From: Narcine bancroftii
Lineage: Eukaryota
Direction of reading: 5' to 3'
Length of the DNA stretch: 64,000 nt
NCBI RefSeq assembly: GCF_036971445.1
Contig: NC_091479.1
Coordinates: forward strand, 75,516,001 to 75,580,000
Shown one piece after another: positions 7,191 to 51,349 of this stretch. Within the stretch, counting starts at the first letter, position 1; every line of letters starts with the position of its first letter. The notes below the pieces were generated by a model, which saw only the letters and a program-made list of their open reading frames with translations, ran no database searches and was not told where the DNA came from. The position numbers were made by a program, and so were the translations under genes.

Positions 7191-8504
7191 TGCTCTACAT
7201 TGCCCTCTATCACCACAACACCAGCCCTCTCTGCCTATTTATGCTGGTAGTGTGGCTCCTGGGGAAGGCAAAAACCAAATGGAAAAAAAAACCCTGCAGC
7301 CAATTACAGGGAAAAGACTTTGGAAAATTCCTCCCCGACTCCTTGGTGGCAATCGAGCAAAGCTCCAGGAGATCACTGGAAATAGTGATACACTACCAGC
7401 AATACTATTTCTAATGTTTTATAACTATTATGCTCTACCACAAAATTAGACGAGGTGTCGCTGGCCCGGACTTCACTCTGCAGCTACTGCTGCTCCGCTG
7501 GGCCCACAAGGCCTGGGCTCTGTGCTCTCTTCTCACGCAGACCGCTTGACTCCACCTCGTCCGCTGCCCACCTCCGCTGTGCTGCCGCTCACGCCTGTTG
7601 CTTCCACTCACCTCCGCTGCAGCTGCCATCTCTGCTGCCCACCCCTGCTGCGGCCGCAGCTCTCCTCACATTCAAGCCTTTTCTCCTATTATCCATATTG
7701 TTCAAAATATCGCTTGCTCAGCATTAGAACTTGATGCTTTAATGAAGCTGTAAGGCTAAAGTTGCAACCAGGATTAATATTTTCATGAAATGGTTCCAGA
7801 GTGAAATAGATTACAGATTTAGATATTGAAAGAGGGCTTCATTGGCCGTAGGACACTATCATAAAGAGTAATATATAAAAGCCAAGAATTCTGTATAACT
7901 GGAGAAATTGTGGTGAGAATGTAAATACAGCAATGATACTTGGTAATTGAATCACAAGCTATTTTATTTCCAGAAGATGCCTTACATTTCAAACATGAAG
8001 CAATTTGCTTTTGTAGAAAGAATCAGAATACCCATTACTTCAACAAACCCTTCAAAAGGCTTTAATATTCTTGTTGAGGCAGATTATCTGGCACTGACTT
8101 CGATTATTCAACGAACACAGCCAGGCCCTATCACAGTGGACACACTGAGATTATACACTATTTGCAAGAATTATGGCAATCTTGATGCATTAATGACCTG
8201 TGCTTCAGATAGAATATACTTAGGGAATGAAAAATGACATTTCTTTATCCCCCTTCCTTTCCCGTAAGTGTCCCTGTGGCCAGTGGGCGACCTCTTATCC
8301 ATTTCTTCCCCAAATGTAGTACAAAATTCAGTTCATAAACTGGTAATTTTCACTCATCTGGTACTCATGCCAGGCACCACGTTACATTTGCCACATACAC
8401 ACCACCCTGGGTAAAAGTTGACAAATATCTTGCTTTGTGGAAACTCTCAATTCTTTTGACCATATATTCATTAAGTATTCTGCTCCTTCAGAGGAGACCA
8501 TGAT

Positions 8505-8695
8505 TGTTATGCTTGGTTTTTTTTCCCCCAAGAAGAATGACTTTGCGTGGGTTTTAACATTTAACCAACATTATTTTCTTTGAGCTGCTTCAATCGACTT
8601 CCAATGACCGCCCCTGTCATATATCACTTCCGGGTTCCAGCCAACTGTGTGCACTGCATGCTGGGAAATGCAGTTCTTATATGCATAATAACACA
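8505..8695 (-). repeat. 3' LTR (complete, ~190 bp)
   Basis: On the minus strand, follows the PPT directly, starts TGTGTTATT and ends CATAACA. Shares tgagctgcttcaa, cccctgtcat and gcactgcatgctgggaaatg with the other LTR. Confidence 0.9.
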
Positions 8696-8772
8696 TCTTT
8701 CCCCTTAAAAAATAAAAACACAAACACAATACGATGCCCACTAACAAAAGTACCTACATTCCATGGTCATTC

Positions 8773-9461
8773 ACTTTCTATCACTTGCATCTGATGACTT
8801 CTGCCTTCACTAAGTTATTCAAGTTCATTCAAGGCATCCGCAAGATCCGCAGAAATCTGTGACGAGGTTCTTGTTTATCTGCAATTCACGAACAGTCACC
8901 AGTAGCTGTTGATTTTGTTGTTGTAGTTCCTCAACATTACAGTAGGTCACCGGATGTTGAGAAATTACTTCAGAGTAACTGCTTATGTCAGAAGAGCTAA
9001 GTTCATCTTCATGAAAAATAGGATTTCCTCGTGCATCTTCTAGTTCAAACAAAAACACCCTGTTCTGCTGTGAAAGATCTGACACTTGCATTTTCTATCA
9101 CTGATTCTCCCTGTGGAGTAATGAAGCATGCTTATTCACCTCATCAGTGCATTTTTGTAAGTGGCAAATTTCCTTCATGCCTTCTAATTTAGCTGAGAGA
9201 TTTACCACAGATTCTCATGCTTGCGCTTCAGAAGTGGAGCTTCCATCTTTGCTTCTTTCACAGTTTCATCTAAATATTTATTCACTCTCTTATTTTACTG
9301 TTTTGCCAATAGCAATTAATTTTGGGCTTATACATCTCTGTGAACCTCATTCCAGGTTTCACAATCTTGGCCACAGCTGCTGCAGTGGGCGACCATAGCT
9401 GCCAGTTCCTCAGTGTGGTGGTTCCTTTAAGCTTTGTAGTTGAAAGAAGATGGTTTGCATC
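8773..9461 (-). pseudogene. TPR: Processed fragment of nucleoporin TPR (coiled-coil region) captured inside the LTR element
   Basis: Frameshifted translation [170 protein letters not shown] is colinear with recalled TPR ([21 protein letters not shown]; [33 protein letters not shown]). No introns; several stops. Confidence 0.92.
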
Positions 9462-9462
9462 T

Positions 9463-9528
9463 GTTAAGTGTAAAACCAATGTAAAATAATTCTTCTTGAA
9501 AGAACAAACATAACATGGTGTCAGACGT
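9463..9528 (+). promoter_or_regulatory. Inverted LTR end (putative R-U5, 9463-9515) and primer-binding site (9516-9528)
   Basis: gttaagtgtaaaaccaatgtaaaataattcttcttg...CATAACA is the reverse complement of about 8505-8565. It is followed by TGGTGTCAGAcGT, complementary to a tRNA-Leu-type 3' end. Confidence 0.8.
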
Positions 9529-9564
9529 GTCCGAGTGAGTAAGAGATGATAATAGTTCATAAGC

Positions 9565-11982
9565 ATGGATAAGTTAAGCCTCCAACACCGATACAGTTTA
9601 CCAGCAATCTAACCAATAATTGGAAGCGATTCATCATTTATTTTGAAGCTGGTGGAATAGGAGAGACTGATGGAAAATGTCTACATTTCTGCACATGATG
9701 GGTGAAGGTGCATGGACATCTATAATAGTTTTCAAATTGATGAGACAGCTTTCACGTTGGACACTGATGGCAAAATGTGAGTATTTTGTTCCAAGTTAAA
9801 ACGTCATGTTTGAGAGATTCACATTTTACTCCTGTGACCAGAAACAAGGTATGATCTTTGACCAATACTTAGCCAAGCTTCACACACAGACTCCTGTGAA
9901 TTTGGAGATTTGAAAAATTCACTCATTAAAGACCGAATAGTTTGCAGAATCCCATATAATGGATTTCGAGAAGACTGTTGCGTGAAAAAGATTTGACTCT
10001 GCAAACGTCTGTGAATATGAGTAGGGCAGCAGAGAATACATGAGCAGAAGCTAAGGAGCTGCTCAGGATAGACACAACAGTTAAGGAGCTGCACAGAATA
10101 GACATATAATGCATGTGATGAAAACAGATGAGCACCAGGAGTTTCCCAAAGTAAAGTGGTAAGCTCAAATGCAGCAGGTGCGGAGGTAGAGATATTCTAA
10201 AGATGTGTCCACATTATGGAAAGTTCTGGTATAAATGTAGGAAGAAGAAGCATTTTGCAAGGTGCTGCAAAGTTGAGGATACCAAGAGAAAGGTATACAC
10301 AGTGGAAGAAGAAATAGAGGAATTCTTTGTGCATTTGCTACAGACTGCTGCAAGCAAAACAGAATATATTGTTCCAGTGACTGTGAATAAGACAGTATTC
10401 CATTTAAGATCGACACCAGAGCCCAGGTAAATTTGTTGTCTATGGATGATTACAAAACCGTCACCACATAGAGCAAGATTTATCCTGTGAAATTAAAAGT
10501 GACAGACTACACTGGAGAGAATGCTCCAATAAAAGCGGGCTGTATGATGACCTTCAAACACAAAGGGCGGCATCTAAAGTCATAGCTATTGATTGTAGAA
10601 AGGAGAGTACAGCCAATATTAGGTCTGCGTGCATGTGAAGAGCTCGACCTGGTGAAAAGAGTTTTCACAGTGGCTTCACAGACTGAAGGCAAACACACAA
10701 CACTCATGGAAGAGTACCAGATGTCTTTGAGGGACTTGGATGTTTACTCAAGATCCACATAGATGAGATAGTGGCTTCTGTTGTCCATGGATGCAGGAAA
10801 GTACCATTTCCACTTAGAGACAAACCTAAACAAGAACTAGCATGCGTGGAACGGATGAAAGTCATCCAGAAAATTGAAGAACCTACAGATCGAATCAGCT
10901 CACTGGTCATCGTGCATAAGAAAAATGGAGCATTGCATATATGTCTCAATAAAGATATAAAGAAATAGCATTTTAAATTGCCCACACAGGAGGAAATAAT
11001 GTCCTAGTTTGCAGGTGCCAAGTGGTTTAGCAAGCACGATGCATCATTGCGATTTTGGCAAATGAAGCTCAATGAGGAAAGTTTGAAACTATGCACTTCC
11101 AATATTCCACAAGGAAGATACCGCTTTCTTCGGCTACCATATGGGATCTTGTGCACACCAGAAATCTATCTTAAAACCATCCACGTGATCTTTGAAAGTG
11201 TATCTGGAGTTGAGACCATGATGGATGATGTCATTGTATGGGGGTCCACCAAGGATGAACATGGTACATGATGAAGACAAGTGCTTGACATGACGTGGAA
11301 TGACAATTTGAAATTAAATAAAGAGAAATGTGAGTTTGGCATAAAGACCCTGGCCTTCATAGGAGATGAGGGAGAAAAGCCTGATCCAAGAAAGACATCA
11401 GCCATTGAGAATTTTGCAAGGCCCCAAAACAAAGAGTAGGTGAGACGTTTCTTGGTCATGGTGATTTACCTGGCTAAGTTCATCCCTCTTTGGCCGACTG
11501 TGTCAGCACCACTTAGATCACTCCTTGAGCAGAAAAATGAATGGATATGGCCGCATGAGCAAGAAGAATGTTTCCAGGCTCTCAAAAAGACCCTCACAGA
11601 GAAGGCTGTACTAAAATTTTCTGATCTGGATAGACGCACCAGGATCTTGGCTGATGCATCCTGACATGGCCTTGGAACAGTACTCCTGCAGCAACATGAA
11701 GATACATGGCAACCTGTGGCCTATGTATAAAGGGTTTTAACAAGTGCAAAAGTCAAATATGCACAGATAGAGAAAGAGCTTCTTTCCAGCATGTGAAAGC
11801 TTCCATCACTATAGTTTTGGATAAGCTTTGGAAGTGGAGACCGATCAATTTTGTCCAAACCACTGAATGACGGTCCCTTGAGAGTGCAGCGCATGTTGAT
11901 AAGGCTGCAGTAATACGATGTGAAAATGTTCTACATTGCCAGGAAAATGCATGTTTTCAGCTGATACACTGTCTCTAGCAGT
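9565..11982 (+). pseudogene. Degenerate Gypsy gag-protease-RT-RNase H (no integrase)
   Basis: Gag start [20 protein letters not shown]; zinc knuckle CPHYGKFWYKCRKKKHFARCC (~10200-10270); protease FKIDTRAQVNLL (~10403); RT YRFLRLPYGI and MMDDVIVWG (11118-11245); RNase H ILADAS, YAQIEKELL, PGK..ADTLS. Many stops and frameshifts. Confidence 0.92.
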
Positions 11983-12247
11983 TGTATAACTGCCCTGGAG
12001 AAGCGATACCTTAATGTACAGAATCAACCTCATTACATGTCATGAATGACAAACTGGAAAATGAGTTGGCAAATAAGGATGTCTTCTTACGCCAGCTAGA
12101 AGACAAAGATAGACAGTTACAGGAACGTCTGGAACTAGCTGAAGAGAAAATGCAGCAAACAATGAAATGAGCAGAAATTTTGCCAGAAGGAGAAGCTGAA
12201 CTTGCCCAGCGAATTGCATCTCTGGCAATGGGAAGAAGGGCATGGCA
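11983..12247 (+). pseudogene. Processed fragment of liprin-alpha (PPFIA, closest to recalled PPFIA2) captured inside the LTR element
   Basis: [86 protein letters not shown] versus recalled liprin-alpha [89 protein letters not shown]. Confidence 0.9.
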
Positions 12248-12405
12248 TTTACATGGGTTTAACACTTAACCGACTTTATATTCCTTGAGCTGCTTCAACT
12301 GACTTCCAACAACCAACCCCTGTCATGTGTCACTTCTGGTTTCCACCCAACCGTGCGCACTGCATGCTGGGAAATGTAATTCTTTTGTACGCGCATAATA
12401 ACACA
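12248..12405 (-). repeat. 5' LTR, lacking its distal (U5) end
   Basis: Aligns to about 8543-8695 (roughly 80-85% identity by eye) and stops after ...aaacccatgtaaa. Confidence 0.85.
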
Positions 12406-13194
12406 ATGACAAGTAGATTTAACAATTAGACCCCAGATGCACAGTGGTTTACAAATTGCTGTTAAAAGTGACTTGAACCTGCAATGCTTTTAATGCACTG
12501 GTAATGGCTATAATACTGCACAATTGATCAGCATCATTCCACTCAGGCCAGTTTTAATGTTGCCCGGTGGGCATGTCAGCCATGAGTAAAGGACATGCTG
12601 AGGTCGCTCAAAATGCCTTTGTAAAAGCTAATTTATTTTTCTAATTCAAGTCAGTTTATCAATCCAGACTCATGCTTTAGCTTTCCTCCTTGTTGCTACA
12701 TTAAGTAGGTCTTGAAACAATTCACATTTGTTTCTACATTTTCATGGAATTTTTATTTTGGGCAGAAATGGACTGAAGATAATTCCTGAATTTTGACTGG
12801 TTTGAATTTCTTGCCCTTTGTCTTGACCTCTCAATCTGAATGAATTTTTGAAACTCTACAATATTGCTACATCAGAAGTAATATCTGCACGAAGAATTTG
12901 AATTCAAATTCATCCATGGAGTTTGCATTGGTCCATTTTCAATCCCATTTTATTTTTATGTGTAATTAAGTGCATCCGAACATTTGGATTTATCTGTATT
13001 TTCTGGTTTGTCCTTTCCCATTTGGTTGCTCTTCGAAGGGTGGTAACATTGGCGTATCTAGCTATTTGGCATTCAGAATGCAGCTGATTGGTATAAATTA
13101 AAACATCAGCTGTTTAAACACTGAAAACATGGTCAAAATTTTGTTTGTCCTCCAAAATGATTGCAGCAAGTGTTTCATTGTTTATTCTTCAGCA

Positions 13195-13790
13195 AATCTT
13201 GACAAGTTTATTGTCATCTGATTATACAAGTACAACCTGACAAAACAGCGTTCTCCAGTCTTGGTTCAAAAAAATGTAGACACACGGTTGGGTGTACACG
13301 TACAGGCAAACAAACATATGCAATATTCATATTATATACAAATAAATAAATATTGTTTCAGAAATATGAAAACTATGTGGTTAGTGTGAACAGTTCCTTT
13401 GGTTGTTCAGCATTCTCGCTCCCCATAGGAAGAAGCTGCTTCTTTGCCTGATGGTGCTGGCTCTGATCCTCCTGTATCTTTTTCCTGAAAGGTGCAGCTA
13501 AAAGATGCTCTTTTTTGAAGGGTGGAAGGGGTCCTCACTGATTTTGCACGCCCTCTTCAGACAATGATCCTGGTAGATTATGTCGATTGGAAGGAGGGAG
13601 ACTCCAGTGATCCTCCCTCCCATTCTTGGACTCCGATCTATTTCTCTGCAGCAACCATGCACACTGTGATGCAGCTGGCCAGGACGACCTTGATAGAGCT
13701 TCTGTAGAAGGTTGACATAATGATGGCCAGTAGCCTTGCCTGTTCAGGAAGTGCAGTCACTGTGGCGCCTTCCTGACAAGTGGAGAGATG
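13195..13790 (-). mobile_element. Rex1/Babar-type LINE 3' fragment
   Basis: Tail caagtttattgtcatctgattatacaagtacaacc is shared with 29583; the body matches 29820-30050. Confidence 0.7.
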
Positions 13791-14392
13791 TTCCAGGATC
13801 TGCCCCAAATCTCGACAAGGTTTAACTTAACAACTGACTTCTGCATTGCACTTTATCAAATATTCTCTAGAAATCCAGAAGTGACGATCTTCTTCGATTG
13901 AGAATTGCTCAAGTATTTCAAGGAGGTTATTTGGGCAGGAATTTCACCATCTGAAATAATACCAGTGATCAGCTGGTTGAGGGGTTTTTATTGCACTAGA
14001 TGTCCCCAGTGTTCAGCTGCTCCAGGTTTAGTGCTACATGACTAGTTTTATCATGTGATCTCCTTTCCCCAACAAGCAGGCACATGTGACTACAGATGCT
14101 GAAACCTGAAGTGAAGAAACAAACTGCTGTAGAATTCACCAAGTCAGTCCTGAAGATCCAAACCACCAACTATCTTTTGCCTTCACAGACGCTGCTTGAC
14201 TTCGCTCCCTCCAACTACTTTATCCACTGTTATGTAATCAACCATTTTGCAGCTCCTTGTTTTTCCACTCTAATGAAGTCTTCATTAACTAACAACATTT
14301 CAGTTTTATAACAGACATTCAAAACAGAGTATTTTTTAAATTCAGAAAAATTTATTGTTATGAACATGTCACAAAATTTGTTGATTTGTGGC

Positions 14393-14596
14393 AAGACCGC
14401 AGAGCCCACCTCACTGACAAAAGACAAAGGAGGAAAAACTCAACACCCAACCCCAACCAATCAATTTTCCCTTGCAACCGCTGGAACCGTGCCTGCCTGT
14501 CCCACATCGGACTTGTCAGTCACCCACGAGCCTGCAGCAGACGTGGACATACCCCTCCATAAATCTTCGTCCGCGAAGCCAAGCCAGAGAGGAAGA
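14393..14596 (+). mobile_element. RTE LINE 3' fragment
   Basis: Near-identical to the 3' end of 18919-19629 (aagaccgcagagcccacctcactgacaaaag...gcgaagccaagcca). Confidence 0.9.
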
Positions 14597-14599
14597 CAG

Positions 14600-15990
14600 G
14601 TGCAAATATTGCTAAATTAACTGCAAAATAAGATAAAGTGAGCAAGTTTCTGTGGTTCATTTTCCATTCAGAAATCTGATGGCAGAGGGGAAGAAGCTGC
14701 TTTTGAATCATTGGGTGTTTGTCTTCAGACTCCTGTACCTCATTCCTGATGGTAGCAGTGTGAAGAGGGCATGGCCTGGGTAGTGAGGATCCTTGAGGAT
14801 AGAAGCTGCTTTTGTAAAATACTGCCGCTTCTTGATGCTCTTGATGGAGTGAAGACTGGTGTTCATGATGGCGCTGGCCGAGTTCACAACTACGTAGTCT
14901 TTCCTGTCCTGTGCATTGGCATCTCCATGCTAGACGATGTAACCGGTCAGAATGTTTTTCAAATTTTTGTAGAAATTTGCAAGAATCTTTGGTGACATAC
15001 TGAATCTCCTCACGAAGTATAGCCACTGGCGAACCTTCTTCATGATTGCATCAACTTGGAGACTCCAGGATAGATCTTCAGAAATATTTGAAATTCTTAA
15101 CCTTTTTCACTGTTGACTCCTCGATGAGGACTGGTTTGTGTTCTCCTGATTTTATTCCCCCCTCCTAAAGTTCCATAGTTGAGTGCAAGGTTATTGTAGT
15201 GACTCCACTCAACTAGCTGATCTATCTCCTTGCTGTCCACACTCTCATTGCCGTCTGTGATTCTGCTTATGACGTGGTGTCATCGGCAACTTTGTAGGTA
15301 GTATTTGAATTGTACCTTGCCACACAGTCATGGGTGTAGAGTGAATAGAGTAGTGGGCTAAGCACGCATCCTTGAGGTGAGCCTGTGTTGATTGTCAGTG
15401 AGGAGGAGACGTTTTTTCCGATTAGGCACTTCGATAATGTAGTCAAGGATCCAGTTTCAAAGGGTGTGCAGAGGGCCATGTTTTGGAGCTTGTTGTCCAG
15501 TAATGAGGATGTGACGGTGTTGAATTCAATGCTGTATTCAATGAAATGTAGCGTGATGTACATGTTCCTGTTGTCTAGGGCTGAGTGGAGAGCCAGTGAG
15601 ATTGCATCTGCTATGGAATAATTGTGGCAGTCAGTAAATTGCAGTGGGTACAGATATTTACTTGGGTACAACCTCTCAAAGCATTTCATCGTAGTAGATG
15701 TGAGTGCTAGTAGGCGATAATCATGGAAGTAGCTCAATCTGCTCTTCTTGGACACCGGTATGATCGATGCATTTTTTGAAGCAGGTCCATAAGGAGTAAA
15801 GAGAGATTGAAAATATCCATGTACACTCCAGTTAGTTGGTTGGCATAGAAATTCAGTACGCTGTCAGGTACGCCATCAGGGTCTGATGCCTCTCTTGAAG
15901 GATATTCTGATATTGGCCTCAGTGACAGATACCATAGGGTCGTCATCTTCTGCAGAGATTCTCATTGGTACCTGTTTTCCTTTTCAAAAG
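14600..15990 (-). mobile_element. Rex1/Babar-type LINE, RT region
   Basis: DYRLLALTSTTMKCFERL...INTGSPQGCVLSPLLYSLYTHDCVARYNSNTTYKVADDTT. Confidence 0.9.
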
Positions 15991-16381
15991 AAGCATAAGG
16001 CAGGACGTTGCTCCGCCGACTCACGCTCAATGGTTACGTGACATTTTGTCACGTTTAAATTCAGAGAAGATTTGATGCTCAATATCGGATTTGAATTTAA
16101 ATTTTCAAACTCTGTGGGGACCCTTTTTGAATTACTTTGAAAATATTTGATTTGGTATTAATGCAGAAGTGTTGGCTAATAAAGTCATTTATTACTGTGA
16201 CAGGGATTTTTTTTTCTTTGCCAAACAGCTTTGGTTTTGGTAATGGGATTAGATTTTTGTTTTATAATAAAATATTACTTAATATAATTTGCTTGATTAG
16301 GAATGCGGAGTACTGTGGATGAAATAGTAAAATCTGAGTGTAGTATTCTGTACTTTTTAAATATTTTGACTTTTAATATAC

Positions 16382-16610
16382 GTAGTGGTTAGCGCAACGC
16401 TTTTATAGCACCAACAATCGGGACACGTCCTCGGTTCGAATCCCATGCTGTCTGTAAGGAGTTTGTACATTCTCCCCATGACTGCGTGGGTTTTCTCTGG
16501 GGACTCCAATTTCCTCCCACCCTTCAATAATGGTTAATGGGGAATAATTTGGGCGGCAAAGACTCGAAGGGCTTAATTATCCTGTCAGAGTGCAGTATGT
16601 CTAATTTAAT
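16382..16610 (+). mobile_element. tRNA-derived V-SINE-like element
   Basis: A-box tagtggttagcg, B-box ggttcgaatcc, V-domain gtttgtacattctccccatgactgcgtgggttttctc...tttcctccca. Confidence 0.8.
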
Positions 16611-17889
16611 TGAATATGTATTAGTGTGTATTCTCTATTTTTTGTTTTGATGTGGAATTTCAATAAAAATATTGGAAAAGGAAAGCAAGTATAAAAGGTG
16701 TTCAGCATCACAGCCATTTATGATGTCAGCTTTGTCTTGTGGGGAGTAGTGGCCTGCACTCTCTGCCATAGCTGGTGATTATCTGACTGTCTCTAACTTC
16801 GCTTGGAATTGCCTCTTTGTTGCTGACAAAACCTTATGTAGGTGTTACCTGGACTTTTCATTCTGGGTGATTCCACTCACTGGAGACTAAATTGTTCTTG
16901 GTTTAGGTATCACTTTCTTGGAAACCTTGCACGTGTACTATTTATATTATTGTTTTGCAGGCTTTACCAGTCGATGATGATTGCCTCTTTGATACTGATT
17001 TTGCATGGGCGAATGCGGAATTGGTTCAGCCTTATGCTCATCCTGTAATGATGGGACCAGGGAGAGTTACCTAGTGAAGGTACTGCTAAGAGTGGGGGTG
17101 GGGGCAAGATGGTGAAACCACTATCGAATGTAACATTTAAAAGGCAGTTGGACAGGTTCAGGAACAGGCAGGAGATGAAGGAATACAGATCATGTGCATG
17201 CAGCTGGGGTAAGTGGAAATTGGCATCATGGGCCAAAGGGCCTGTTTGTTTGCTTTATTTTTCTATGCACTGGACTGATATCCAACTCTTTCTCATTTCC
17301 TGATTTATGATCATGTTGCTCATTCTGTGAGTTCTAATGCACGTACATTTATTTTTACTGCAGTTACGTCACCAAACTTAACTGCCATCACGTGTACAGA
17401 TAGAAAACAACTGCCTCTGAGACCAACACAATTATTTTACATTTCTATTGCTAGTGTGGTACAAACGGCTGGATGTCCCGCAATCCTAAATGTGTTTTAT
17501 TATTGTATATGGGAGAGCCAGAAGCTACATTCAGAGACCCCAAATTCTTCAGATGGAAACCAGCACACAATGTTCACTGCATGGCTCTTGCACTAAATGA
17601 TTGGCAGTAAATTCTCCAATCTCAAATATTTAATGGGCTTGACTGGTGATATTTGAAGATGCGCTTTGAGCCACAGCAGAGTTGTTCTGTCTGTTGTGTA
17701 ATGAATAGCTGCCCTTTGTAGTCAGGAACTGTGATTCTCAATGCTGCTCATGTTGGTGATTGTGGTCTCTGAGAACTCTTTGTAGAGTTAATAAATCATA
17801 ATGAATCCTCAGGACCACTTGGATTCAGTAAAAGGGATCTTCAGTAAAAGATCTGCAATAATTATTCAAAACTCATTCTTATACTTCCT

Positions 17890-18790
17890 TACTCACCACC
17901 TTCCAGGTGAAGCGAGGATTCACGTGCTCTACATCCATCTTTGCCTACTGAACTTGGTGTTCCCAATGCAACCTGCTCTCCATGGGCGGGACTGTGTAGG
18001 CTGTACAACTGATTTGTAGAGCACCTTGTTCCAAGAGCTCCCAGTTGCCATTTCAACCACCACCACCCCCCCCCCCCCCCCACATCTGACCACCCTCTGT
18101 CTTCTCCATTTCCAGTGTGTGCCCAACATAAACTAAAGGATTAATGCCCATGGAAGTTTCTACTTCCGGTCACTCTAATCTCCTTTGTATCTCCAGGCCT
18201 CACATTTTTGTCCCTTTCCTCATAACTGCCATCCAGCTGTCTGGTCACCCATTTTTTTTCTCCTTCCTAATTCTATCCACGTACTATCCATATATATAAA
18301 ACTCATCCGATCCTTCTCCCATTCAGCTCTATTTTCCTTTCCCCTCTCCCCAAATGGTTTCCATTATCACCTGCCTTACTAATCACATTCCAGCATTGGT
18401 AGCCTTTGTATTCCCTTCTATCATTCTCCAGCAGCTGTCTCCAGGATTACCCATTCCTCTCTGCCCCCCCCCCCCCCAAAAACCTGGCTCCACCTGTCCT
18501 TTAAATAATCTGTCAATTTCCACCTCTCACCCCACCCCTCTGTCTCCCAACATCCCTACCTGTCAATCATTCTTTCTTTCCCTCTCAGTCTACTGATCAC
18601 CTACTGGCTTTCTGCTTTTTCCCCCTCTTCCCTCCAATTTTTTTTAAACACCATCTATCTTTCTGCTCAACTCCCAGTCCTGATGCAAGATGACCTGAAG
18701 CATCGATAGTTCCTTTCCCTCGTACAACTTCTTGACCCACAGAGCTCCTAAAGCAGCTTGTTCTTTGGCCCAGATTTCAGCAACTGTAGA
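17890..18790 (+). mobile_element. Penelope-like element, degenerate 3' part
   Basis: ccttccaggtgaagcgaggattcacgtgc and cccagttgccatttcaa resemble the Penelope fragments at 37790-38310 and 61360-61530, followed by a pyrimidine-rich tail. Confidence 0.5.
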
Positions 18791-18918
18791 ATTGCAGTCT
18801 CTTGTGCCTTTCCCATTAGTTCTGGAACCAGACTGTTTTGCTTGGTGACTGTTGGGATCTGCTGAGGGGTTCGCAAATTCTGGATAGCATAAAAAGACAT
18901 GGGAGAGTGTTTTACCTT

Positions 18919-19629
18919 TAGCGCCTTTGGAAGACTACACAAAAGAGTCTGGAAAAACAACCAACTGAAAAACCTCACAAAGATAAGCGTATACAGAGCC
19001 GTTGTCATACCCACACTCCTGTTCGGCTCCGAATCATGGGTCCTCTACCGGCACCACCTACGGCTCCTAGAACGCTTCCACCAGCGTTGTCTCCGCTCCA
19101 TCCTCAACATCCATTGGAGCGCTTTCATCCCTAACGTCGAAGTACTCGAGATGGCAGAGGTCGACAGCATCGAGTCCACGCTGCTGAAGATCCAGCTGCG
19201 CTGGATGGGTCACGTCTCCAGAATGGAGGACCATCGCCTTCCCAAGATCGTGTTATATGGCGAGCTCTCCACTGGCCACCGTGACAGAGGTGCACCAAAG
19301 AAAAGGTACAAGGACTGCCTAAAGAAATCTCTTGGTGCCTGCCACATTGACCACCGCCAGTGGGCTGATATCGCCTCAAACCGTACATCTTGGCGCCTCA
19401 CAGTTCGGCGGGCAGCAACCTCCTTTGAAGAAGACCGCAGAGCCCACCTCACTGACAAAAGACAAAGGAGGAAAAACCCAACCCCAACCCACCAATTTTC
19501 CCCTGCAACCGCTGCAACCTTGTCTGCCTATCCCGCATCAGACTTGTCAGCCACAAACGAGCCTGCAGCTGACGTGGACTTTTTACCCCCTCCATAAATC
19601 TTCGTCCGCGAAGCCAAGCCAAAGAAGAA
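18919..19629 (+). mobile_element. RTE-clade LINE, 5'-truncated, little diverged
   Basis: Open frame KISVYRAVVIPTLLFGSESW...QLRWMGHVSRMEDHRLPKIVLYGELSTGHRDRGAPKKRYKD; tail gcgaagccaagccaaagaagaa. Confidence 0.92.
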
Positions 19630-20279
19630 ATACCTAACAATAGATAAATTATTAACTAATAAAAGTGATTTTTCTGAATTAGTTGTTTAGAAAGTAAGCT
19701 GTTTCTTTTTGAAGCCCCAAAGCACTTTGCAACCAATAAATTGCTTTTGAAGGAGTTCCGGTTGTAATGTACACGGCAAGCAGTTCACCCAGAAAACACT
19801 CAAACAGCAACTTGATAATGACCAGACAACTTGTTTACAAAATGTGAAGGAAGAAGGGATAACTTCCACGCTTCAAATCTGTGCTGTGGAATTTCTTGTT
19901 TCCCACTAAGGTCCTAGGTTTTCTTGCCATCCAAATGATGGCAATTCTGAGAATGTAGCACTCCCTCAGCACTGTGTGGAACAGCAAGATAGGGTTATTC
20001 ACACAAGTATTGGAGTGGACCTGAACATGCAATCTATTGATTGAGCAAGAGTATCCTCCTGTAACCCACAGCTGACAGTATTTAGCAATATGTAAGATGC
20101 ATCAGGCCATTAAAAATGTGCTTGGACAAGCCATAACATTTTCTAATATGTTTCATTGGTACTAGTCACAAATTAAAACAACACTGTGACCTTTCAGGGG
20201 TTTCAGTGAAGAATCCCTCAGCAAGATACTAATGGCACCTTTCAGGTAAAGTTGGCAAAGATGGACACAACTTTTGGAT

Positions 20280-22390
20280 AACGTGACGGTTATGTCCCAG
20301 TCCTGCTCCTCCGACCTGGAACATCTGACGATTAAGTGCCACCAAGTCTACCTGCTGAGGGAGTTCACTGCATCATCCTGGTCGCAGTGTACATTTTGCC
20401 CCAAGCTAATGTCAAGCTGGCACTGGAGGGACTGAACATTGTGATTAACAGATGTGAGACAGCACATCCTGATACCTTCCTGATATCTTCCTCAGACCAA
20501 CCCGAAGAAGTTGCTGACAAACGACCACCAACGCACCACATGTGACCATGGGAGCCAACACACTCGTCCTCTGCTACACCACCATAAAGAACGCCTACCA
20601 AGCCATACCAGGACCGCACTTCGGCAAGTCTGATCACCTGGCTATACTTCTACTCCCGGCGTACAGCAGAGACTGAGGACTACAGCACCAGTAGTGAAGA
20701 TGGCAAAAGTGTGGTCAAGGGAGATAGAGGAGGTATCTGCAGAACTGCTTTGAATTGGTGGATTGGAACATATTCAAAAACTTATCACCGACTTCATTGA
20801 GATCTGTGTGAACGAGTGTGTGCCAAAGCACGGGTGTTTCCCAAACAAAGGCCTTGGTGGAATCAGAGGATTCGCAACCTGCTGAGGCTGAGAATAAGGG
20901 CATTTAAGGCCGGTGATCGGGATCTTTACAAGAATTCCAGGTACAATCTGCAGAAGGCTAACTCTAAACTAAAATGGCAATTCTGGAGGAAGCTAGAGAC
21001 AGATACACGCCAGCTATGGCAGGGAGTGGAGGCCATTACACCCTACAAAGTGAGGGAAAACACCATAGATAGCTGTGATGCCTCATTACCTGATGAGCTG
21101 AACACCTTCTATACCCATTTTGAGAAGGAGAACCAAACAGTGTCTACTAGAATCCCTGCAAAGGCTGAGGACTCTGTGATATCAGACTTCAGAACATCAT
21201 TCAAGAGGATGAACCCGCACAAAGCAGGGTACTGAAAATCTGCGCCAACCAACTAGCTGGAGTGTTTACAGATATTTTCAACCTCTCAACTGCTACAGTC
21301 AGAGGTTCCTCCCACTTCAAAAGGGCATCAATCAAACCGGTGCCTAAGAAGATCCTTGTGAGCTGCCTCAACGACTAGCGCTAACTTCTACGTCGATGGA
21401 ATGCTTTGAGAGGCTGGGCGCGGCCAGAATTAACATGTCCGAAGCAAAGGTCTGGATCCACTTCAATCTGCCTATTGTCACAATTGCTCCTCAGGATACA
21501 CAATATTGCTGACTCTCCACTCAGCTCTGGATCACCTCGAAAACAGCAACTCACACATATGGTTGCTCTTTATCGACTACTGATTATCAACACAGGCTCA
21601 CCTTAAGGATGCGTGCTTAGCCCACTGCTCTACTCATGACTGTGTGGCCAGACACAATTCCAAAGCCATCTAAAATTTGTCAATGACACCACAGTTGTTG
21701 GCAGAATCACAAACGGCAATGAGGAAGTGTACAGGAGGGAGATGGATCAGCTCGTTGAGTAGTGTCATGCCAACAATGTTGCACTCAACATTAGCAAAAC
21801 TGAGGAGATGATCGTGGAGTTCAGGAGGAAGGCAGGGGGATACAATCCAGTTCTCATACAGGGCTCAGTGATGAAGTGGGTCAAGAACTTCAAATTCCTG
21901 GGTGTCAACATCTGTCCTGGAGCCTCCATGTCGATTCAATCCCAAAGAAGGCTCGCCAGCGGCTATACATAGTGAGGTGCTTGAGGAGATTCAGTATGTC
22001 ACCGAAGACTCTCGAAAACTTCTACTGGAGTACTATGAAGAACATTCTGGCTGGTTGCATCACTTTCTGGTATGGAGGCACCAACTCTCAGGACAAGAAA
22101 AAACTCCACAAGGTTGTTAACTCAGCCTGTGACCATTCCATTGAGGACATCTACATGAGGCCATGCTTAAAAAAGTAGCCTCTACCCTCAAAGACCCCCA
22201 TCATTTAGGCCATGCCCTCTTCACTCTGCTACCATCGGGGAAAAGATACAGGAGCCTGAAGATGAGCACTCAGCGGCACAAGGGCAGCTTTTTCCCTGCT
22301 GCCGTTAGATTCCTGAATAATCAATGAACCAAAGACACTGCCTTGCTTTTTGTGCACAATTCTGATTATTTATCTATTTATTTATTTATT
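20280..22390 (+). mobile_element. Rex1/Babar-type LINE (end of endonuclease plus RT), degenerate
   Basis: IILVAVYILPQAN; HFGKSDHLAILLLP; FPKQRPWWNQ; RT-region ggatgcgtgcttagcccactgctctac; KKARQRLYIVRCLRRF. Confidence 0.9.
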
Positions 22391-22728
22391 TTAAAAAGCG
22401 GTTTATATGAATATTTTCACAATGATGCTTAGCTGAATATTTGCATTTGTAAGAAGTTGGTGTCCACACTTGCACTATTGGCACTGATTGCCTCACCATT
22501 TTTAACCACAAATAATTTTCTTGGTCCAGCCAGTATAAGGTCTTTGTTTAACTGCCTATTTTGGGTTTGTTGCTGTAATTTTTTTTGAGAGAGGAAGAAT
22601 TGTATTTTATATATCATTGATTAGTAATTAGGCATGAAAGCTCTTTATACCTGATTGCAGCAATCCTTAATAACTTTGTGTCCAAGCATTCAAAATGGAT
22701 TAAATGTATCATTGTGTTTATTTTTCAG

Positions 22729-22941
22729 GCATTTGGACAAGCATATTCCAACCACCGCAAAGTTGCAGAAGATGGTGAGACCCGTGAGGAAACTCTTCTG
22801 CAAGAGTCTGCATCGAAGGAAGCGTATTATCTTAGTAAGATCCTGGAGCTACAAACCGATATAAAGCAAGTCAGGACCGTGGTGGTCAATGTCCAGTCTG
22901 AAAATGAACGGCTCAGTGCTGTTTCAGTGGATCTGAAGGAG
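22729..22941 (+). CDS. BICD1: BICD1 (Bicaudal D homolog 1, dynein cargo adaptor) internal coding exon, equivalent to exon 2
   Basis: Acceptor tttttcAG|GCA and donor GAG|GTaatt; 213 nt, phase 0/0. Peptide [71 protein letters not shown] matches recalled vertebrate BICD1 ([26 protein letters not shown]). Confidence 0.95.
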
Positions 22942-25639
22942 GTAATTCTGTTGCTTTTGTTGCTCCCAGGACAAGTGGGAAGGGATTGCATCTAAGTGTA
23001 GAATCAGAATTGACAAACACTGCACAGCCATATCCATACAGTGTTACATTGAACTGGCTATTGCACCCAAGGCTGCGCTGCATTCCACTATATTAGTTTT
23101 CCTCTGAGGTGACATGTTAAGTTAATAGGGATCAAGTTCTGTTCCAAAATGTTCATTTGATTTTGTCCACTGCATGTTTTGATCAGTGCTGGTTGACAAA
23201 TGTTCACACACCTTCAGTAGTTATTTTTCACAAAAAGTTTTCATGTTCTGGTATAGGCAACCATTTTCATTCATACAATGGAAGCATAATTGAGTCTTGT
23301 GGTTTCAATTGATGTCCAAATGGTTACATCCCAGCAGAGGTGACCAAGAGAGGCAATAACCTCTCCCTAGTGAGGGAAATGTGAAAGCCGAATGTTGTAG
23401 CCTCACCATAACACGAACATGAACATTCGGTTGAATCTGTGTTCACTTAATATACATCACAGTTATTAGTGATGGACTCGTATAGTGTTGTATGCAATAT
23501 TTTAAAAAGAGCAAAATAGTTAAGGTGTATATCTTGATAAACTATTTTGATCTGTCTATGGATAACAAATCATTGGATTAAGGGTATGACCTAGATATTA
23601 ATCTGCTTAAATAACACTGAGATTTAACTGTAAATCTCAACAAGGCCACAGAACTTGAGGGTATTTGTTACAAAGACAGCTATATTCAACTTTCCAGGGC
23701 AACTTATTTTGAGATAATCAGTCAAGAAAATTTATAAACCTGATTGGTAAGCTTATCAACTTTCAGTGCCCAGTGCAGTGAGTAAGTTAATTTGTGAAGA
23801 ACGTTACAAGATAGACTCAGTTAATTTTAGTCATCATAGAGTTATACAACCCTGAGTCAAGTCTCTTGGCCTAACTTGTCCATGCCAATTAAATTAGTTC
23901 TATTTGCCTCTAAACGGTTCCTTTCCATGTCTAAAAGTTTCCTCTGGCAGCTCTTAAAGCTTCTATCTTTGCAGAAAATGGTACAAAACTAAAGCAAATT
24001 ACATTTGTATTTGTGTTGTGGTTTCGTGTTAATTCTGCTCCAAATTGATGATATCTTCAGATAACTTTAACCAAATGATTCACTGTTGCACCTTAGAATG
24101 CCCTCTGTGGCACATCTTATAAAGCCTTCCTTTCATGCAGTCATTTGGAACAAACCTTTCCATTTCCCACTGTAAAACTGAGCAATGAAATCAAGGCTTT
24201 TCCATTTCCTATCACAACTGCACTATTTCTTGTACAAAAACAACAATCATATTTTAGCAGCTGAAATGTATGGAGCTCTGGGCAAGAAGTCATCTTCAAT
24301 TGTTCACTCATCCACTGCAGAGATCCCCCTCCATCCAGTCCCCCATTTTCCACCCTCCATCCTTGCACATTCATTGTGTGCCCTTCATTATTCACCAGAT
24401 CAAGGGTTGCAAAGCTGAATTGGACTCAAACATGTTGTGCAATGAAATTGCATTTACTACAGATCAAATAGGGGGGATGTTTTCAGTCCTTCTTTATACC
24501 TGATAGAATTCTGACATCTCGTTTTCATTTTCAGACATGAGGATTGATGAAATTTTGTGTCAAAATGTGGATTTCAGCACTTTGTGTTGCATTGTTGCGG
24601 TGTCATCTGAACGTTCAGTAATTAGATCATTCAGCTTCTCACACCAATTTTGTCATTCATTCAGCTATTGGTTGATCTTTGTTCTATTGCTAAAACATGG
24701 CTCTGTAATTCATAATACCTTTGGGTCGCAAATAGCCATGGCTTTTAGGATTGTAAAGAGATGATTGAGCTAGCAAATGAGGTCCATACTTTAATGTCTT
24801 TACTAATGCTGATTCTAAATGATTTGGTTCAGATTTTAAAATTATGTCCTCTTGTTCTGGCCATCCCGAATGACAGAAAATGCCTCTATTTGTCCTGTCA
24901 AATCTGCTAAGCTTCAATTGAATCCCCACTGACCTTTCATATTTAAGGGAACTGAAGCCTAAGTTTCATAATCTATTTAGATAATCCATTCTTGGAACAC
25001 AGCAGTGTCCTATGCAGAGTGATTTTTAAGTTGCGTTTCCCAGAAATGTCCAAAGTTTTCCAGCTCAGGACTAACTAGAACTTCTTGTAGCAGCTTCAGA
25101 TATTCCAGCTATCCAATTTTACCAATAAACGTTCTTATGGTCATCTTTAATCATGCTTTATACCATTCTACCATGTCAGACATTGGTCAGACATTGTCAG
25201 CCTTTTTGGCTATGGCTCCCTTTGAACTCTGCTCAAAGTTAATGGGCCCCCTTCCTTCTGAAAAGCATTCAAGTTTAGCTGGTTTCTTCCGTACTTCTGC
25301 CCTTCTGACTCAATAAAAAAACGTTTGTTATGCGAGGTGAAAAGAAAGCTATGTTTTTATTCTGAGCATAAACAACTGTGGCTCGTGATTCCAGAACAGA
25401 CAAATAGGAGTTCATTCTTATCAAACATGCAGGAAAGAAAAAAAATATGGCCAAACATATTACAAAAAAATTTCAAAATATTGGCACGCAATGATTTGTA
25501 CACAGTGTGTCACTGGGGAAACTTGAGCATAACTGCAAGGATGCGAAAATTTAATAAAAAGGACAAAAAAGAATTCTTGTTAAATGAAAATTGGGGGGAG
25601 ATTCCTGTGCAAGTTTTTTGATGTCAGGCTCCAAACTGG

Positions 25640-27130
25640 ATAGTGATAGTTGAACATCATCTCTTGTTGTGACATCATGGTCAAGGAAACTACCTTGCTG
25701 AATCCACATTCAGCTTGGTATGTTGAGGGGAAGGCAATGAAAAATATTTCAGCCTTTCCTCAAAGTTTTGGAAATGTATTCGGCAGGTCACTCTTCACCC
25801 AAAAAATATTTCTTAAATTAATTGAATTTGCAGATATAATCACTGAAGATCAATCAACTACTCTTGAATTTTTGCATTACCATCAGTGGGTTGTTCCTCA
25901 AATGGATCTAATATCCAATATGGGATATTGAGGTTTAACAAGTCATTAAATCTTTCCTGCAGATCTGCGTATATTTGCTTTTGTTGTTTCACATAAACAG
26001 TAATGCCGTCCTCTTTCAGTGCCTCTGCATTTGGAAATGGTAAAGATTCCCATGTCAGATATTGCTCCAAAAGACTTTGATCTTTTTAAGGAAAGAAACA
26101 ACGGCTTTCTTATTATCAATGAAGTTATTGTGTACTTACTCTGCAAAGTCTTGTTGAATGAATTGAGTTAGAAAGGAAACAATCATGTGCCAGAGTGCAT
26201 CAAAATGACGGGGATAATTTCCTTTGGACAGCCACCTCACCTCGGTATGCAGCAGCAGGGTCTGAAAATGTCTGTCATTTTCTTCACACAGCTGCCGGAA
26301 TAGATGAGCTTGGAGGGGATGAGATTTTATAAAGTTTAGAGTCTTTATGACAATTAAAAGTGGAGCATTTAAACATTCTCCAAGTTTTTCACCACTCCCT
26401 ATTAATTACACAATGAGCAGTAAAGACTAAAGGTATAACATTTTTGAGATGTGTGATGAACTCTCTGTATCGTCTGACCAATGAAATGGCACTATCAGTT
26501 GCACGGGCAACTGTGTTCTTGAATGGAGCACTTTTCTCCTTTATGTAATTCTTAACTTCTCGGAAAATAGTCAGTCCCTTAGCATCTGTTTTAATCCTTA
26601 CAGTAAACAACATCTCTTCCATTAGCTCATTGTCATTCCAGAATCTGGCATAAGCCATGAGAAGGGCACTGTTCGCTTGCAGAGTAGATTTGTCTAATTG
26701 TAAAGAGAATTTCTTGGGCTGTAATTAAATTACATTGAAAAACAATGTCCCTTGGCATCTCATCATTTCTTCTCAAAACAGTGGAATTACTCAAAGGAAT
26801 TACCTGAATAGTTTCTTTGGCATTTTAAGTTCATGACGTCATATTATTATGGACACTGAAGGCAAAATAAAAGACTCAGGGATGCTATGAGTATTTCCAC
26901 TTGTAGCAATAAATTCACTTGCCTTATATGATGCAAGAACACCCTTTTCTAATTTAAGTGATCTTCAGTAATGATCTCTTTGAGCATTGGCCTTCTCTCA
27001 ACATTATCTTAAAGGGTTTATCTTTCTTTTTGTTGCATATGGTCTTGAAATGTTGTTTTGGCTTTCTTGGTCTCATGCTTTTGTTTGAAAATGCATTCAA
27101 ACACGAGTCATCAGTGGGTGGACCAGCTTC
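25640..27130 (-). mobile_element. hAT (Buster/Charlie-type) transposase fossil
   Basis: Minus-strand motifs in order: NAFSNKSMRP..KQHFKT; LDKST..NSALLMAYARF; ATDSA...AHCVINRE; HTEVRWLSKG (~26250-26221); IAFPSTYQAECGFSKV (~25740-25690). Confidence 0.85.
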
Positions 27131-37451: not shown

Positions 37452-37694
37452 ATCTTGGCGCCTCACAGTTCGGCGGGCAGCAACCTCCTTTGAAGAAGAC
37501 CGCAGAGCCCACCTCACTGACAAAAGACAAAAGAGGAAAAACCCAACACCCAACCCCAACGAACCAATCTTCCCCTGCAACCGCTGCAATCGTGTCTGCC
37601 TGTCCCGCGTCGGACTTGTCAGCCACAAACGAGCCTGCAGCTGACATTACCCCTCCATAAATCTTCGTCCGCGAAGCCCAGCCAAAGAAGAAGA
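37452..37694 (+). mobile_element. RTE LINE 3' fragment
   Basis: Near-identical to the 3' ends of the other RTE copies; gaagaagaa tail. Confidence 0.9.
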
Positions 37695-37789
37695 AATTGG
37701 ATGGCATGGGCTTGTGGGATGAAATGGTCTGTTACCATGCTGTATGTATGTCTAAAGTGGATGTGAGAGAGTTAGGACCATATATAACC

Positions 37790-41058: not shown

Positions 41059-42217
41059 CCCTTTTACACTGCCCGTGAAAGATGGTAATTACTCACCTTT
41101 TTACTGTTTCAACGGTGTGAAGGCGACCAAGATGGAATGGGGGGGTAATTTTCATCCCAGTACTTGCCCACCAAGGTAGGTAGTATCAGATTGACTCCAC
41201 ATTGGCTCCATTGTAGAAGGTTTACCCGTCTTCCCCAGACGCCAATACTATAATGCTGCAGGTTCACCTCCTTTTGCACTGGGAGGCTGGGTCTCTATGC
41301 AAAAAGTCGCACTGAACCACCTTTTCTTGGTTCAGTGTGAATGCTCCAATCTGACCCAACCCAATTTCAAACACGGATTGTTGACATGCCAATTTAGTGG
41401 GGTCTTCAACCAGCTTATCTATCTCAGCTGCACCATTTCATCAGATGCAAGGATCGACAATGAGATAGACAACAGACTCGCCAAGGCAAATAGCGCCTTT
41501 GGAAGACTACACAAAAGAGTCTGGAAAAACAACCAACTGAAAAACCTCACAAAGATCAGCGTATACAGAGCCGTTGTCATACCCACACTCCTGTTCGGCT
41601 CTGAATCATGGGTCATCTACCGGCATCACCTACGGCTCCTAGAACGCTTCCACCAGCGTTGTCTCCGCTCCATCCTCAACATCCATTGGAGCGCTTTCAT
41701 CCCTAACGTCGAAGTACTCGAGATGGCAGAGGTCGACAGCATCGAGTCCACGCTGCTGAAGATCCAGCTGCGCTGGGTGGGTCACGTCTCCAGAATGGAG
41801 GACCATCGCCTTCCCAAGATCGTGTTATATGGCGAGCTCTCCACTGGCCACCGTGACAGAGGTGCACCAAAGAAAAGGTACAAGGACTGCCTAAAGAAAT
41901 CTCTTGGTGCCTGCCACATTGACCACCGCCAGTGGGCTGATATCGCCTCAAACCGTGCATCTTGGTGCCTCACAGTTTGGCGGGCAGCAACCTCCTTTGA
42001 AGAAGACCGCAGAGCCCACCTCACTGACAAAAGGCAAAGGAGGAAAAACCCAACACCCAACCCCAACCAACCATTTTTCCCCTGCAGCCGCTGCAACCGT
42101 GTCTGCCTGTCCCGCATCGGACTTGTCAGCCACAAATGAGCCTGCAGCTGACGTGGACTTTTACCCCCTCCTTAAATCTTCGTCCGCGAAGCCAAGCCAA
42201 AGAAGTGTAAAAAGGGG
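41059..42217. mobile_element. Putative MITE interrupted by an RTE copy
   Basis: Left terminus cccttttacact (41059-41070); its reverse complement agtgtaaaaagggg lies at 42204-42217, right after the RTE tail. Confidence 0.5.
41406..42205 (+). mobile_element. RTE-clade LINE, 5'-truncated, little diverged
   Basis: Open frame YLSCTISSDARIDNEIDNRLAKANSAFGRL...CSRCNRVCLSRIGLVSHK; same tail as the other copies. Confidence 0.93.
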
Positions 42218-49930: not shown

Positions 49931-51349
49931 CAGTAGGTGTTCATCATGGTAAATGCATTAGCAAGTAGTGAGGTGTGGTTTGTCAGAACATTCAGTTGGA
50001 TTGGTGAGCAGTGATTATTAAAGCATTTTGTTTCACCCGTGAACAAAGGAGTGCAGCTGTGCATGGGTTACATGGCCATGGAAAGCAGTGAAGTATTGTG
50101 TCAATTCATTCTTTCCCGCTGATGGTGGTTAATGTATTCGGTGGCATGGACAAAATATGAAGAAATGTGTTCTGTACAGTTGATCAGAACTGAGATGTCG
50201 ATTATGAACGCATATGTAGCAAAGACATGTATTTTGATCTGGTTAGTAAACGTGTTTTGTCACATTAAAGACATTGTCATGCGTGGATTACCCATGCACG
50301 ATCCAGATCACCAGGCATTTTGTGTAATACTGCTGACTTGTGATGTGCAATAAAACACTGATATTCTGAGCTGTGGAATGCCAATCTGTTCTGCACTATT
50401 GATGAGCAGTGCCACTGAGTGCTGTGGCCTGTCAATGGAATCAGTACTGTGGACAAGCAGCGACATTCTGGCAGTGGGGCATTTTGTAACAGTTACGATT
50501 AGCAAAGGGTAAATTAGTTCTGCAACATTGAGCAGCGAGCGGCATACAGTAAATTGGTTTTGTAGCATGATGAGCAATGGGTTTTCTTGCATTGATTAAT
50601 GAACTGCAAACAGTGAATGTACGTGCTCTGTAGGCTTCTAATCACTGTGATACGGTCAATATAATCAAAAGAACTGCTGAGCAATGGGGTGTTGACTAAC
50701 AATGAGTTCTGCACCATGGATGAGCAGAGAGGGTGGATATCAACAGACTGTATTCTGAATTATTGATGGTCATTATGTTTTGCAGCACTGAGGAGCTGGG
50801 TGGGCGACTGGCCAGTCTATTCTCTAATACTGATGAATAGTAAAATGTGAATCATTCTTTCCTGGAGTGTGGGCAGGCATATGGTGAAAGCATTTTGTAG
50901 AATTGATGAGCCATGATGTAGCAATGTATCTGTCGTACATTGTAGTACTGAAGACAAAAAGGGGCAGGCACGAAATGCGTTCTAAAGCTCTGTGATTTGT
51001 GACCGCGAACTGCCAATGTATTCTGCAGTTGGTGTAGATTGTTCAATGCATTTTGTAGCATAAATAATCAATGAGGTGTGGATTTTCAATGCATTTGCAG
51101 CAGAGATGTGGAGATGGCGAATGAATGAGCCCCCCCCATATGATGAAAACAATTTGAGGCATTGATTAACACTAAGGTGTGAATGTTGAGTGTGTTTGCA
51201 AACATTTACAAGAAGTGCATTTTGTAGTACTGTACTGACGAGCACTGAGGTGTACATTGTTTATGAATAATGTTCGTAGATACAGCATGGCAATCAAGCA
51301 TTATATTGGTTTAAATTGTGCGCTCCAGAACTGATGACTTGTAAATACA

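Follow-up and report, generated by a model that had tools for sequence, protein, structure and literature searches.

The window (the whole stretch of DNA that was analysed, 64,000 nucleotides) contains an LTR retrocopy of two host genes with an inner inversion that is private to this copy. The carrier is an old, non-autonomous Mag-like Ty3/Gypsy element, a single insertion that spans positions 8505-12405 and whose core is reversed relative to its own LTRs. As a preliminary description of this DNA had it, the LTRs and the polypurine tract (PPT) lie on the minus strand, and the plus strand carries an LTR end, the primer-binding site (PBS) and gag-pol (Table 1). The inverted block (9463-12247, 2,785 bp) comprises this LTR end, the PBS, gag-PR-RT-RH and a piece of PPFIA2 mRNA, and it is bounded by an inverted duplication of 23 letters.

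Table 1. Features of the element with the inverted core, in positions of the window
Feature	Positions	Strand	Basis
Target-site duplication (TSD), left copy, ATGAT	8500-8504	.	4/5 match to right copy
3' LTR, complete, 191 bp, TG...CA	8505-8695	-	self-comparison, alignment
Counterpart of the 23-mer at its regular 3' LTR site (third copy)	8542-8565	-	alignment
Polypurine tract	8696-8706	-	sequence
3' UTR and probable last 5-6 pol codons	8707-8784	-	short-motif likeness to relatives
TPR mRNA piece, intron-less, broken, about residues 356-604 of whale-shark TPR (P0001)	8785-9462	-	Pfam PF25785, E 3e-17; tblastn, E 7e-65
23-mer, inverted (candidate R); breakpoint on the left	9463-9485	+	alignment
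Remainder of the LTR end (candidate U5), ends CA, absent from the 5' LTR	9486-9515	+	aligns to 3' LTR end
Primer-binding site, TGGTGTCAGA...	9516-9526	+	sequence
gag (two CCHC-type knuckles, decayed), PR, RT, RNase H	9573-11984	+	alignment to fish relative
PPFIA2 (liprin-alpha-2) mRNA piece, intron-less, broken, about residues 315-403 of P0073	11986-12247	+	Pfam PF25526, E 4e-16
5' LTR, truncated to 158 bp, TG at start	12248-12405	-	self-comparison, alignment
23-mer where the 5' LTR is truncated; breakpoint on the right, 12247/12248	12248-12270	-	alignment
Poly(A)-signal position, degenerate here	12275-12281	-	canonical in most other copies seen
TSD, right copy, ATGAC	12406-12410	.	4/5 match to left copy

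Structure, lineage and age of the element

A self-comparison, the kind of dot-plot check that the preliminary description had proposed, recovered two direct repeats (8542-8695 and 12248-12405) together with the inverted LTR end. The LTRs are 81.8% identical over 159 columns, and upstream of the 23-mer they differ at 20 of 130 sites (15.4%, about 7.7% per copy), which is about twice the 9% (41/459) between the TPR piece and its likely parent mRNA; this relation, together with a TSD that agrees in four of five letters, supports a single insertion. One contig of run X3 (organism A) matches the region around 8500 with 0 differences over 7900-8712. Organism B contains both flanks, on X5 pieces covering 7900-8438 and 12526-12781, and among the contigs listed for it none extends from the flanks into the element. 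As the flanks of organism B diverge by about 6-10% (at 53 of about 540 letters on one side and at 16 of 256 on the other), which is less than the roughly 15% between the LTRs, this organism should have the same insertion.

The complete 3' LTR carries motifs that we take to be ZNF143/Staf-like and ETS-like, and a TATA box at 12280-12275 was found in this copy alone. The PBS TGGTGTCAGA at 9516 is presumably of the tRNA-Leu type, and no tRNA gene was found within the 64-kb window. Downstream of it, gag, PR, RT and RNase H follow in order along residues 62-879 of the intact fish relative P0194, with RNase H ending at about 11983. The reading frame is shifted, and there are 18 stops in six aligned blocks. 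Integrase, which P0194 carries downstream of RNase H, is missing from the window copy. The last five to six codons of pol probably lie on the other side of the core, within 8707-8784, where the window reads VIESE-stop and the relatives read RLIESC (4/6) or RLIETC (1/6). With every frame broken and no hint of activity, the locus is dead as judged from its sequence.

Two CCHC knuckles in gag are a feature of the Mag lineage. Such knuckles are present in gag of 6/6 full-length relatives, and their counterpart in the window, at 10170-10260, has decayed. The nearest relatives found are fish elements, with an RT identity of 70-76%, and a search of viral contigs with P0194 found no relative. LTR length and TSD agree with the values listed for the Mag lineage in a survey of Culex, the available part of which gives LTRs of 119-304 bp (191 bp here), TSDs of mostly 5 bp (the 5-bp ATGAT/ATGAC here) and a PBS of the Leu or Ser type (a putative tRNA-Leu type here) (PMC3286476).

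Two host-gene pieces in place of the integrase

By alignment, PPFIA2 and TPR occupy the place of the integrase as cargo from spliced mRNAs. The PPFIA2 piece is in sense with pol and follows directly after the RNase H end, and the TPR piece is in sense with the 3' LTR, just upstream of the probable pol end and the PPT; the best protein matches of both are ray and shark proteins, which makes a cartilaginous fish the most likely host. Two exon borders are covered by the PPFIA2 piece when it is set against six fish liprin-alpha loci (L001-L006), of which L004-L006 resemble a single gene: an exon ends at K397 before a GT in 6/6 loci, and at the border 352/353 an AG acceptor precedes residue 353 in 5/6 and a GT donor follows residue 352 in the sixth. 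The parent TPR gene presumably has introns over the corresponding stretch. The TPR piece keeps the residue order of the protein. Over 9002-9460 it is also followed colinearly by an RNA-type X7 contig of 1,588 nt, which differs from it at 41 of 459 letters and is likely to be the parent TPR mRNA.

That the cargo is part of an amplified family and predates the inversion is a fairly firm reading of the contig data. Coverage relative to the flank, as summed contig depth and thus not equal to copy number, was 61-159x for TPR and 116-125x for PPFIA2 in run X3 (organism A), and 46-143x and 135-170x, respectively, in run X5 (organism B). Single cargo sites in X3 are represented by 22-53 distinct contigs, some of them longer than 300 letters and intron-free, and with dozens of contigs per site a single parent gene is insufficient as their source. 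TPR-like sequence goes beyond 9460 in seven X6 contigs and in three X7 contigs, one of the latter being the likely parent mRNA, and one X7 contig connects TPR with the PPT side (joint 8704-8812, with a short side of 21 letters).

The preliminary description had noted that both host fragments lie exactly at the breakpoints, which agrees with our finding that PPFIA2 extends to 12247 and TPR to 9460-9462, and it had suggested that the fragments bridged the rearrangement. The latter suggestion is not supported, as the cargo stands at about 45-170x flank depth in two organisms, both pieces are joined to pol in sense, and other TPR contigs continue past 9460; the breakpoints fell into older cargo. 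A capture of the host pieces during the inversion was rejected on the same depth in the two organisms. The simplest reading would be an amplified non-autonomous family that carries both pieces and is older than the split between organisms A and B, and two sister families with one cargo piece each are possible instead. Among the contigs listed there was none with both cargo pieces and no complete second copy, and a fusion of pol, TPR and liprin was absent from 295 proteins, in searches that are ill-suited to decayed fusions.

The breakpoints and their geometry

The 23-bp inverted duplication claimed earlier was confirmed at 21/23 letters between 9463-9485 and 12270-12248. The segment 9463-9485 is the sole plus-strand match of at least 17/23 in the 64 kb, and the chance expectation of a 21/23 match is about 1.5e-5. 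Where the duplication starts is uncertain by 1-3 nt, positions 9460-9462 fitting the LTR or TPR at 2/3 letters. The copy in the 3' LTR (8542-8565) differs from the 5' LTR copy by three substitutions and one indel, and from the inverted copy by four substitutions and one indel; the two duplicates differ from each other at two sites and have three letters and their length in common against the 3' LTR copy. The probability of two or fewer differences in 23 letters at the rate between the LTRs is 0.29, a value that sets no age of the duplication relative to the insertion.

In element order, the switch points are 12270, 12248, 12247 (the PPFIA2 end) and 9462 (the TPR start). The junctions are near-blunt, one of them blunt at the protein-level view and the other with 1-3 letters in common. 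The geometry is that of a single switch-and-return of type 3-1-2-4, with an inverted spacer between the arms of an inverted repeat, and it indicates neither the polymerase nor the timing. No hairpin or cruciform was found at the 23-mer (z 0.60, 1.01 and -0.79 for three stretches), and a 23-letter LTR pattern had no match in contigs of viral, metagenomic or prokaryotic genome origin.

Other copies of the element are normally oriented, since their contigs cross 12248 into the LTR end: 51 X3 contigs of other copies extend past this position into an LTR end of the type seen at 9486-9515. An opposite-strand joint of 9490 to 12248 is present in 3/4 runs. The 15 best-supported joints (of 375) and the 32 pieces listed (of 12,443) include no contig that runs across an inversion junction. 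A rearranged master copy that spread was rejected, given that it has no sense PBS and that no such joint is present in the best 15 of 375.

The 23-mer as candidate R

An AATAAA-like motif had been described just upstream of the 23-mer, with the proposal that the 23-mer may be the R region. The position of the motif held up, about 4 nt before the 23-mer, whereas the motif itself is degenerate in both LTRs of this copy. At 12280, 102 X3 contigs have the letter that makes the signal canonical, and the end of the 23-mer is directly followed by a GU-rich tract in other copies. This order of signal, about 4 nt, 23-mer and GU-rich tract is like the layout of RSV and MMTV, for which the accessible part of the source places the poly(A) signal in U3 and the downstream element in U5, with a short R between them (PMC3694450). 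On this analysis it is plausible, and slightly preferred by us, that the 23-mer would be R and the two pieces the opposite ends of the genomic RNA. A mapping of R for a Mag-like lineage was not found in the literature.

A joint near the same site is present in a contig of organism B (X5, depth 26), in which the LTR place 12268, at most 2 nt from the start of the 23-mer, is joined to pol at 11466. It is one of the 12 joints listed out of 97, with the strand relation unspecified, and by chance a joint would fall 3 nt or less from one given site among 158 with a probability of 0.044, without correction and for a coincidence noticed post hoc. If the start of the 23-mer were the cap site, the region of 12268 is where a run-off strand or strong-stop DNA would be expected to end.

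Origin of the inversion

Here we favour an origin of the inversion in the particle, during reverse transcription, and consider the chances of this reading to be about even. The tRNA-primed minus strand would copy U5, R, U3, the PPT and TPR and halt within TPR. The PPT-primed plus strand would stop at the end of R, move onto sense RNA at PPFIA2, copy back via pol, gag, PBS and U5, and run off the capped 5' end, from where it would jump to the stalled minus strand. A single break of the RNA between PPFIA2 and TPR could be the source of both inner ends. The product would end in U3 on the left and in U5 on the right and could be inserted by integrase acting in trans with a 5-bp duplication; the survival of both integrase ends would fit the TSD that is observed. 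It would also be a dead end, because the transcript of its 5' LTR would have no sense PBS. Jumps between template ends should need no common letters, which would fit junctions with 0 and with 1-3 common letters. In a narrower version, all four switch points would be template ends, namely the cap, the poly(A) end and the two ends of the RNA break, and this we regard as possible at best and rather doubtful.

The following observations speak against reverse transcription as the origin. A PPT-primed plus strand normally stops after the PBS, 48 nt further on, so that an extra assumption is needed; the two duplicates resemble one another more than either resembles the copy in the 3' LTR, although with some 1.8 expected changes in each copy a later duplication is thereby favoured only 1.4-2 fold; and the junctions are nearly devoid of microsimilarity, compared with its presence at 25/29 junctions in the available part of a survey of LTR-mediated captures (PMC5131818). 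The second of these is at the same time an argument for a chromosomal inversion after insertion, which we consider a serious contender at somewhat less than an even chance. An ordinary LTR-PBS-gag-pol-PPFIA2...TPR-PPT-LTR copy would have been inserted and later rearranged, either by staggered breakage of the 5' LTR (with fill-in of a 23-nt overhang) together with a break in the cargo, or by a switch-and-return at a replication fork, with the loss of some cargo at the far end. Such a route makes unusual reverse transcription unnecessary, as the cargo was already present and two breaks are enough, and the near-blunt junctions suit end joining. Precedents are available in the parts of two studies accessible to us: inversions with an inverted duplication make up 17/29 in Drosophila, 12 of them with the duplication at one breakpoint only (PMC1885836), and events of type 3-1-2-4/1-3-4-2 constitute 23% of the high-confidence human-chimp switch events (PMC5453318). 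Their size class is however unlike the present one, the Drosophila duplications measuring at least 46 bp and the human events being short-range (PMC1885836, PMC5453318, as far as accessible). The site also shows no hairpin or cruciform (z 0.6 and 1.0), and the position of the 23-mer would be left to chance. The preliminary description had preferred strand transfer to a chromosomal inversion; the RSV/MMTV-like layout is supportive of that preference, but a chromosomal switch or a staggered break gives an identical geometry.

It is improbable, in our estimation, that two elements or an outside cDNA were involved, with a reversed R-U5-PBS-gag-pol-PPFIA2 piece patched into a broken copy or with two cargo families having met. 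No contig among those listed has both cargo pieces, and the inverted block starts at a possible 5' end of an RNA, both of which would suit this explanation; the insert would however have to replace exactly the homologous resident block, a second TSD is absent, cargo depths are similar in both organisms, and each piece has one sense pol junction, at the ends of the integrase region, as would be the case in a single master element. Even less credit is due to an artefact of assembly or library preparation that reversed the core. For an artefact speak the lack of a junction-spanning contig among those listed, the fact that the best runs contain 0.59-0.64 of the sampled words, and the nature of the core as a repeat family. 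Against it, the copies of the 23-mer differ at two sites, where an artefact should produce exact copies, the outer ends have a common TSD, and the left flank, the 3' LTR and the PPT are matched exactly by one contig, perhaps from the assembled sample. Two other routes were rejected. Autointegration would join an LTR tip and duplicate about 5 bp; a LINE-type insertion of element RNA would add sequence and not replace it, and neither a tail nor a direct duplication is present.

Should the inversion have arisen by reverse transcription, the plus strand would be able to shift to an RNA template and to reach the cap with the integrase ends intact, which would constitute a route to inverted cargo and to antisense pieces of host genes, and R of this lineage could be read off the locus. 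If, in addition, each of the four switch points was a template end, the 23-mer would map R of this lineage straight from DNA, and similar junctions elsewhere would represent a recurrent route to inverted retrocopies. If the inversion were chromosomal, it would be an ordinary small inversion within a dead repeat. The family itself could serve as a test set, as two related fishes contain numerous old copies of it, in which odd junctions can be counted by their LTR position.

Comparison with known systems

In a literature search by title and abstract, in which older retrovirus work was thinly covered, we found no clear match to an LTR element whose inversion lies at R. Multiple-displacement amplification, which was used for the HIV-1 figure given here, can itself create inversions. 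Among HIV-1 proviruses, inversions were present in 2/78, as summed from a legend, and this precedent counts in favour of an origin in reverse transcription (PMC9278108). These defective proviruses and the window copy have in common that they are integrated products with inner inversions. In the available part of that paper, unequal LTRs are attributed to switches between two packaged RNAs, and the inversions come without a stated mechanism, none of them being bounded by R (PMC9278108).

The accessible part of the study by Ranz et al. (2007) shares with our case the inversion that is duplicated at one breakpoint only, and differs in that the inversions are large, with duplications of 46 bp-1.9 kb, compared with 2.8 kb and 23 bp within an element here (PMC1885836). 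What is available of Loytynoja and Goldman (2017) describes the same inverted repeat flanking an inverted spacer after a single switch-and-return; their events are short and take place at the replication fork, whereas here the spacer measures 2,785 bp and the polymerase may be reverse transcriptase (PMC5453318).

For cargo of this kind in cartilaginous fishes, a search by title and abstract with mostly open-access coverage gave no clear match. The closest parallels are the LTR-mediated retrocopies of animals compiled by Tan et al. (2016), which, in the part of that paper at hand, include the two-gene BATUMI chimera and are accompanied by a citation of maize Bs1 (PMC5131818). In the window copy, the host parts lie inside the ORF, in sense, between the LTRs and without a poly(A) tail. 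Common to both are partial spliced host mRNAs in place of part of the element ORF, two genes in one element, and the retention of both LTRs and of the TSD; the retrocopies of that compilation spread non-autonomously, and a spread of the present family is suggested by contig depth (PMC5131818, available part). As such, the family with two-gene cargo adds one more instance of a known process. The window copy differs from the retrocopies described in that part by a core that is reversed relative to the LTRs and has a 23-bp inverted duplication, and in that its inversion junctions are nearly without microsimilarity, unlike the 25/29 capture junctions reported in the same available part (PMC5131818).

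Results and discussion

The TPR and PPFIA2 mRNA pieces carried by the Mag-like Ty3/Gypsy insertion are apparently multi-copy in two organisms, as judged from contigs of the sequencing runs X3 and X5, and their repetition seems to point to an amplified Gypsy family with two cargoes, which merits a description of its own. A PPFIA2-like copy that skips 77 letters (window 12121-12199) was found in the DNA-type run X3 and also in X6 and X7, both RNA-type, and, given its presence in the latter two, another copy of this cargo may be transcribed. TPR-like contigs at 8735-9402 reached a depth of 11,000-26,000 in X6, which is RNA-type, vs 300-500 in X7, and the deep X6 contigs could stem either from the parent mRNA or from family copies.

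Odd junctions in other copies lie near the 23-mer, the LTR segment that is duplicated in inverted orientation in the insertion. In an X5 contig of another copy, LTR position 12268, close to the start of the 23-mer, is joined to mid-pol (11466) with one C between them. This joint may be the trace of an aberrant strong-stop jump, in which case it would mark the cap site. One X7 contig follows the LTR to 12271, immediately upstream of the 23-mer, and then passes directly into letters resembling the LTR end, as if the 23-mer had been deleted. Since the segment is flanked by short direct repeats, slippage between them could account for its apparent loss.

Features of the window
Feature	Positions	Basis or remark
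TPR mRNA piece	8785-9462	
PPFIA2 mRNA piece	11986-12247	
Presumed ZNF143/Staf-like and ETS-like motifs, 3' LTR	8656-8674 and 8626-8634	pattern search
Presumed ZNF143/Staf-like and ETS-like motifs, 5' LTR	12362-12379 and 12332-12339	pattern search
LINE-like 3' end, three copies	18919-19627, 41456-42205, 57475-58223	94-97% alike (self-comparison)
LINE-like 3' end, shorter copies	14393-14590, 37452-37696	self-comparison
Tandem arrays	51346-51673 and 52025-52479	periods about 86 and 42 letters
Second Gypsy relic	54622-55418	RT and RNase H pieces

Elsewhere in the window, the second Gypsy relic is much older, with 30-37% identity to relatives. The three LINE-like 3' ends, which we take to be RTE-like, gave no match in a Pfam search, and the two tandem arrays show a weak mutual likeness (65%, window self-comparison). 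Both LTRs of the insertion carry ZNF143/Staf-like and ETS-like motifs, a pair also found in TATA-less housekeeping promoters.
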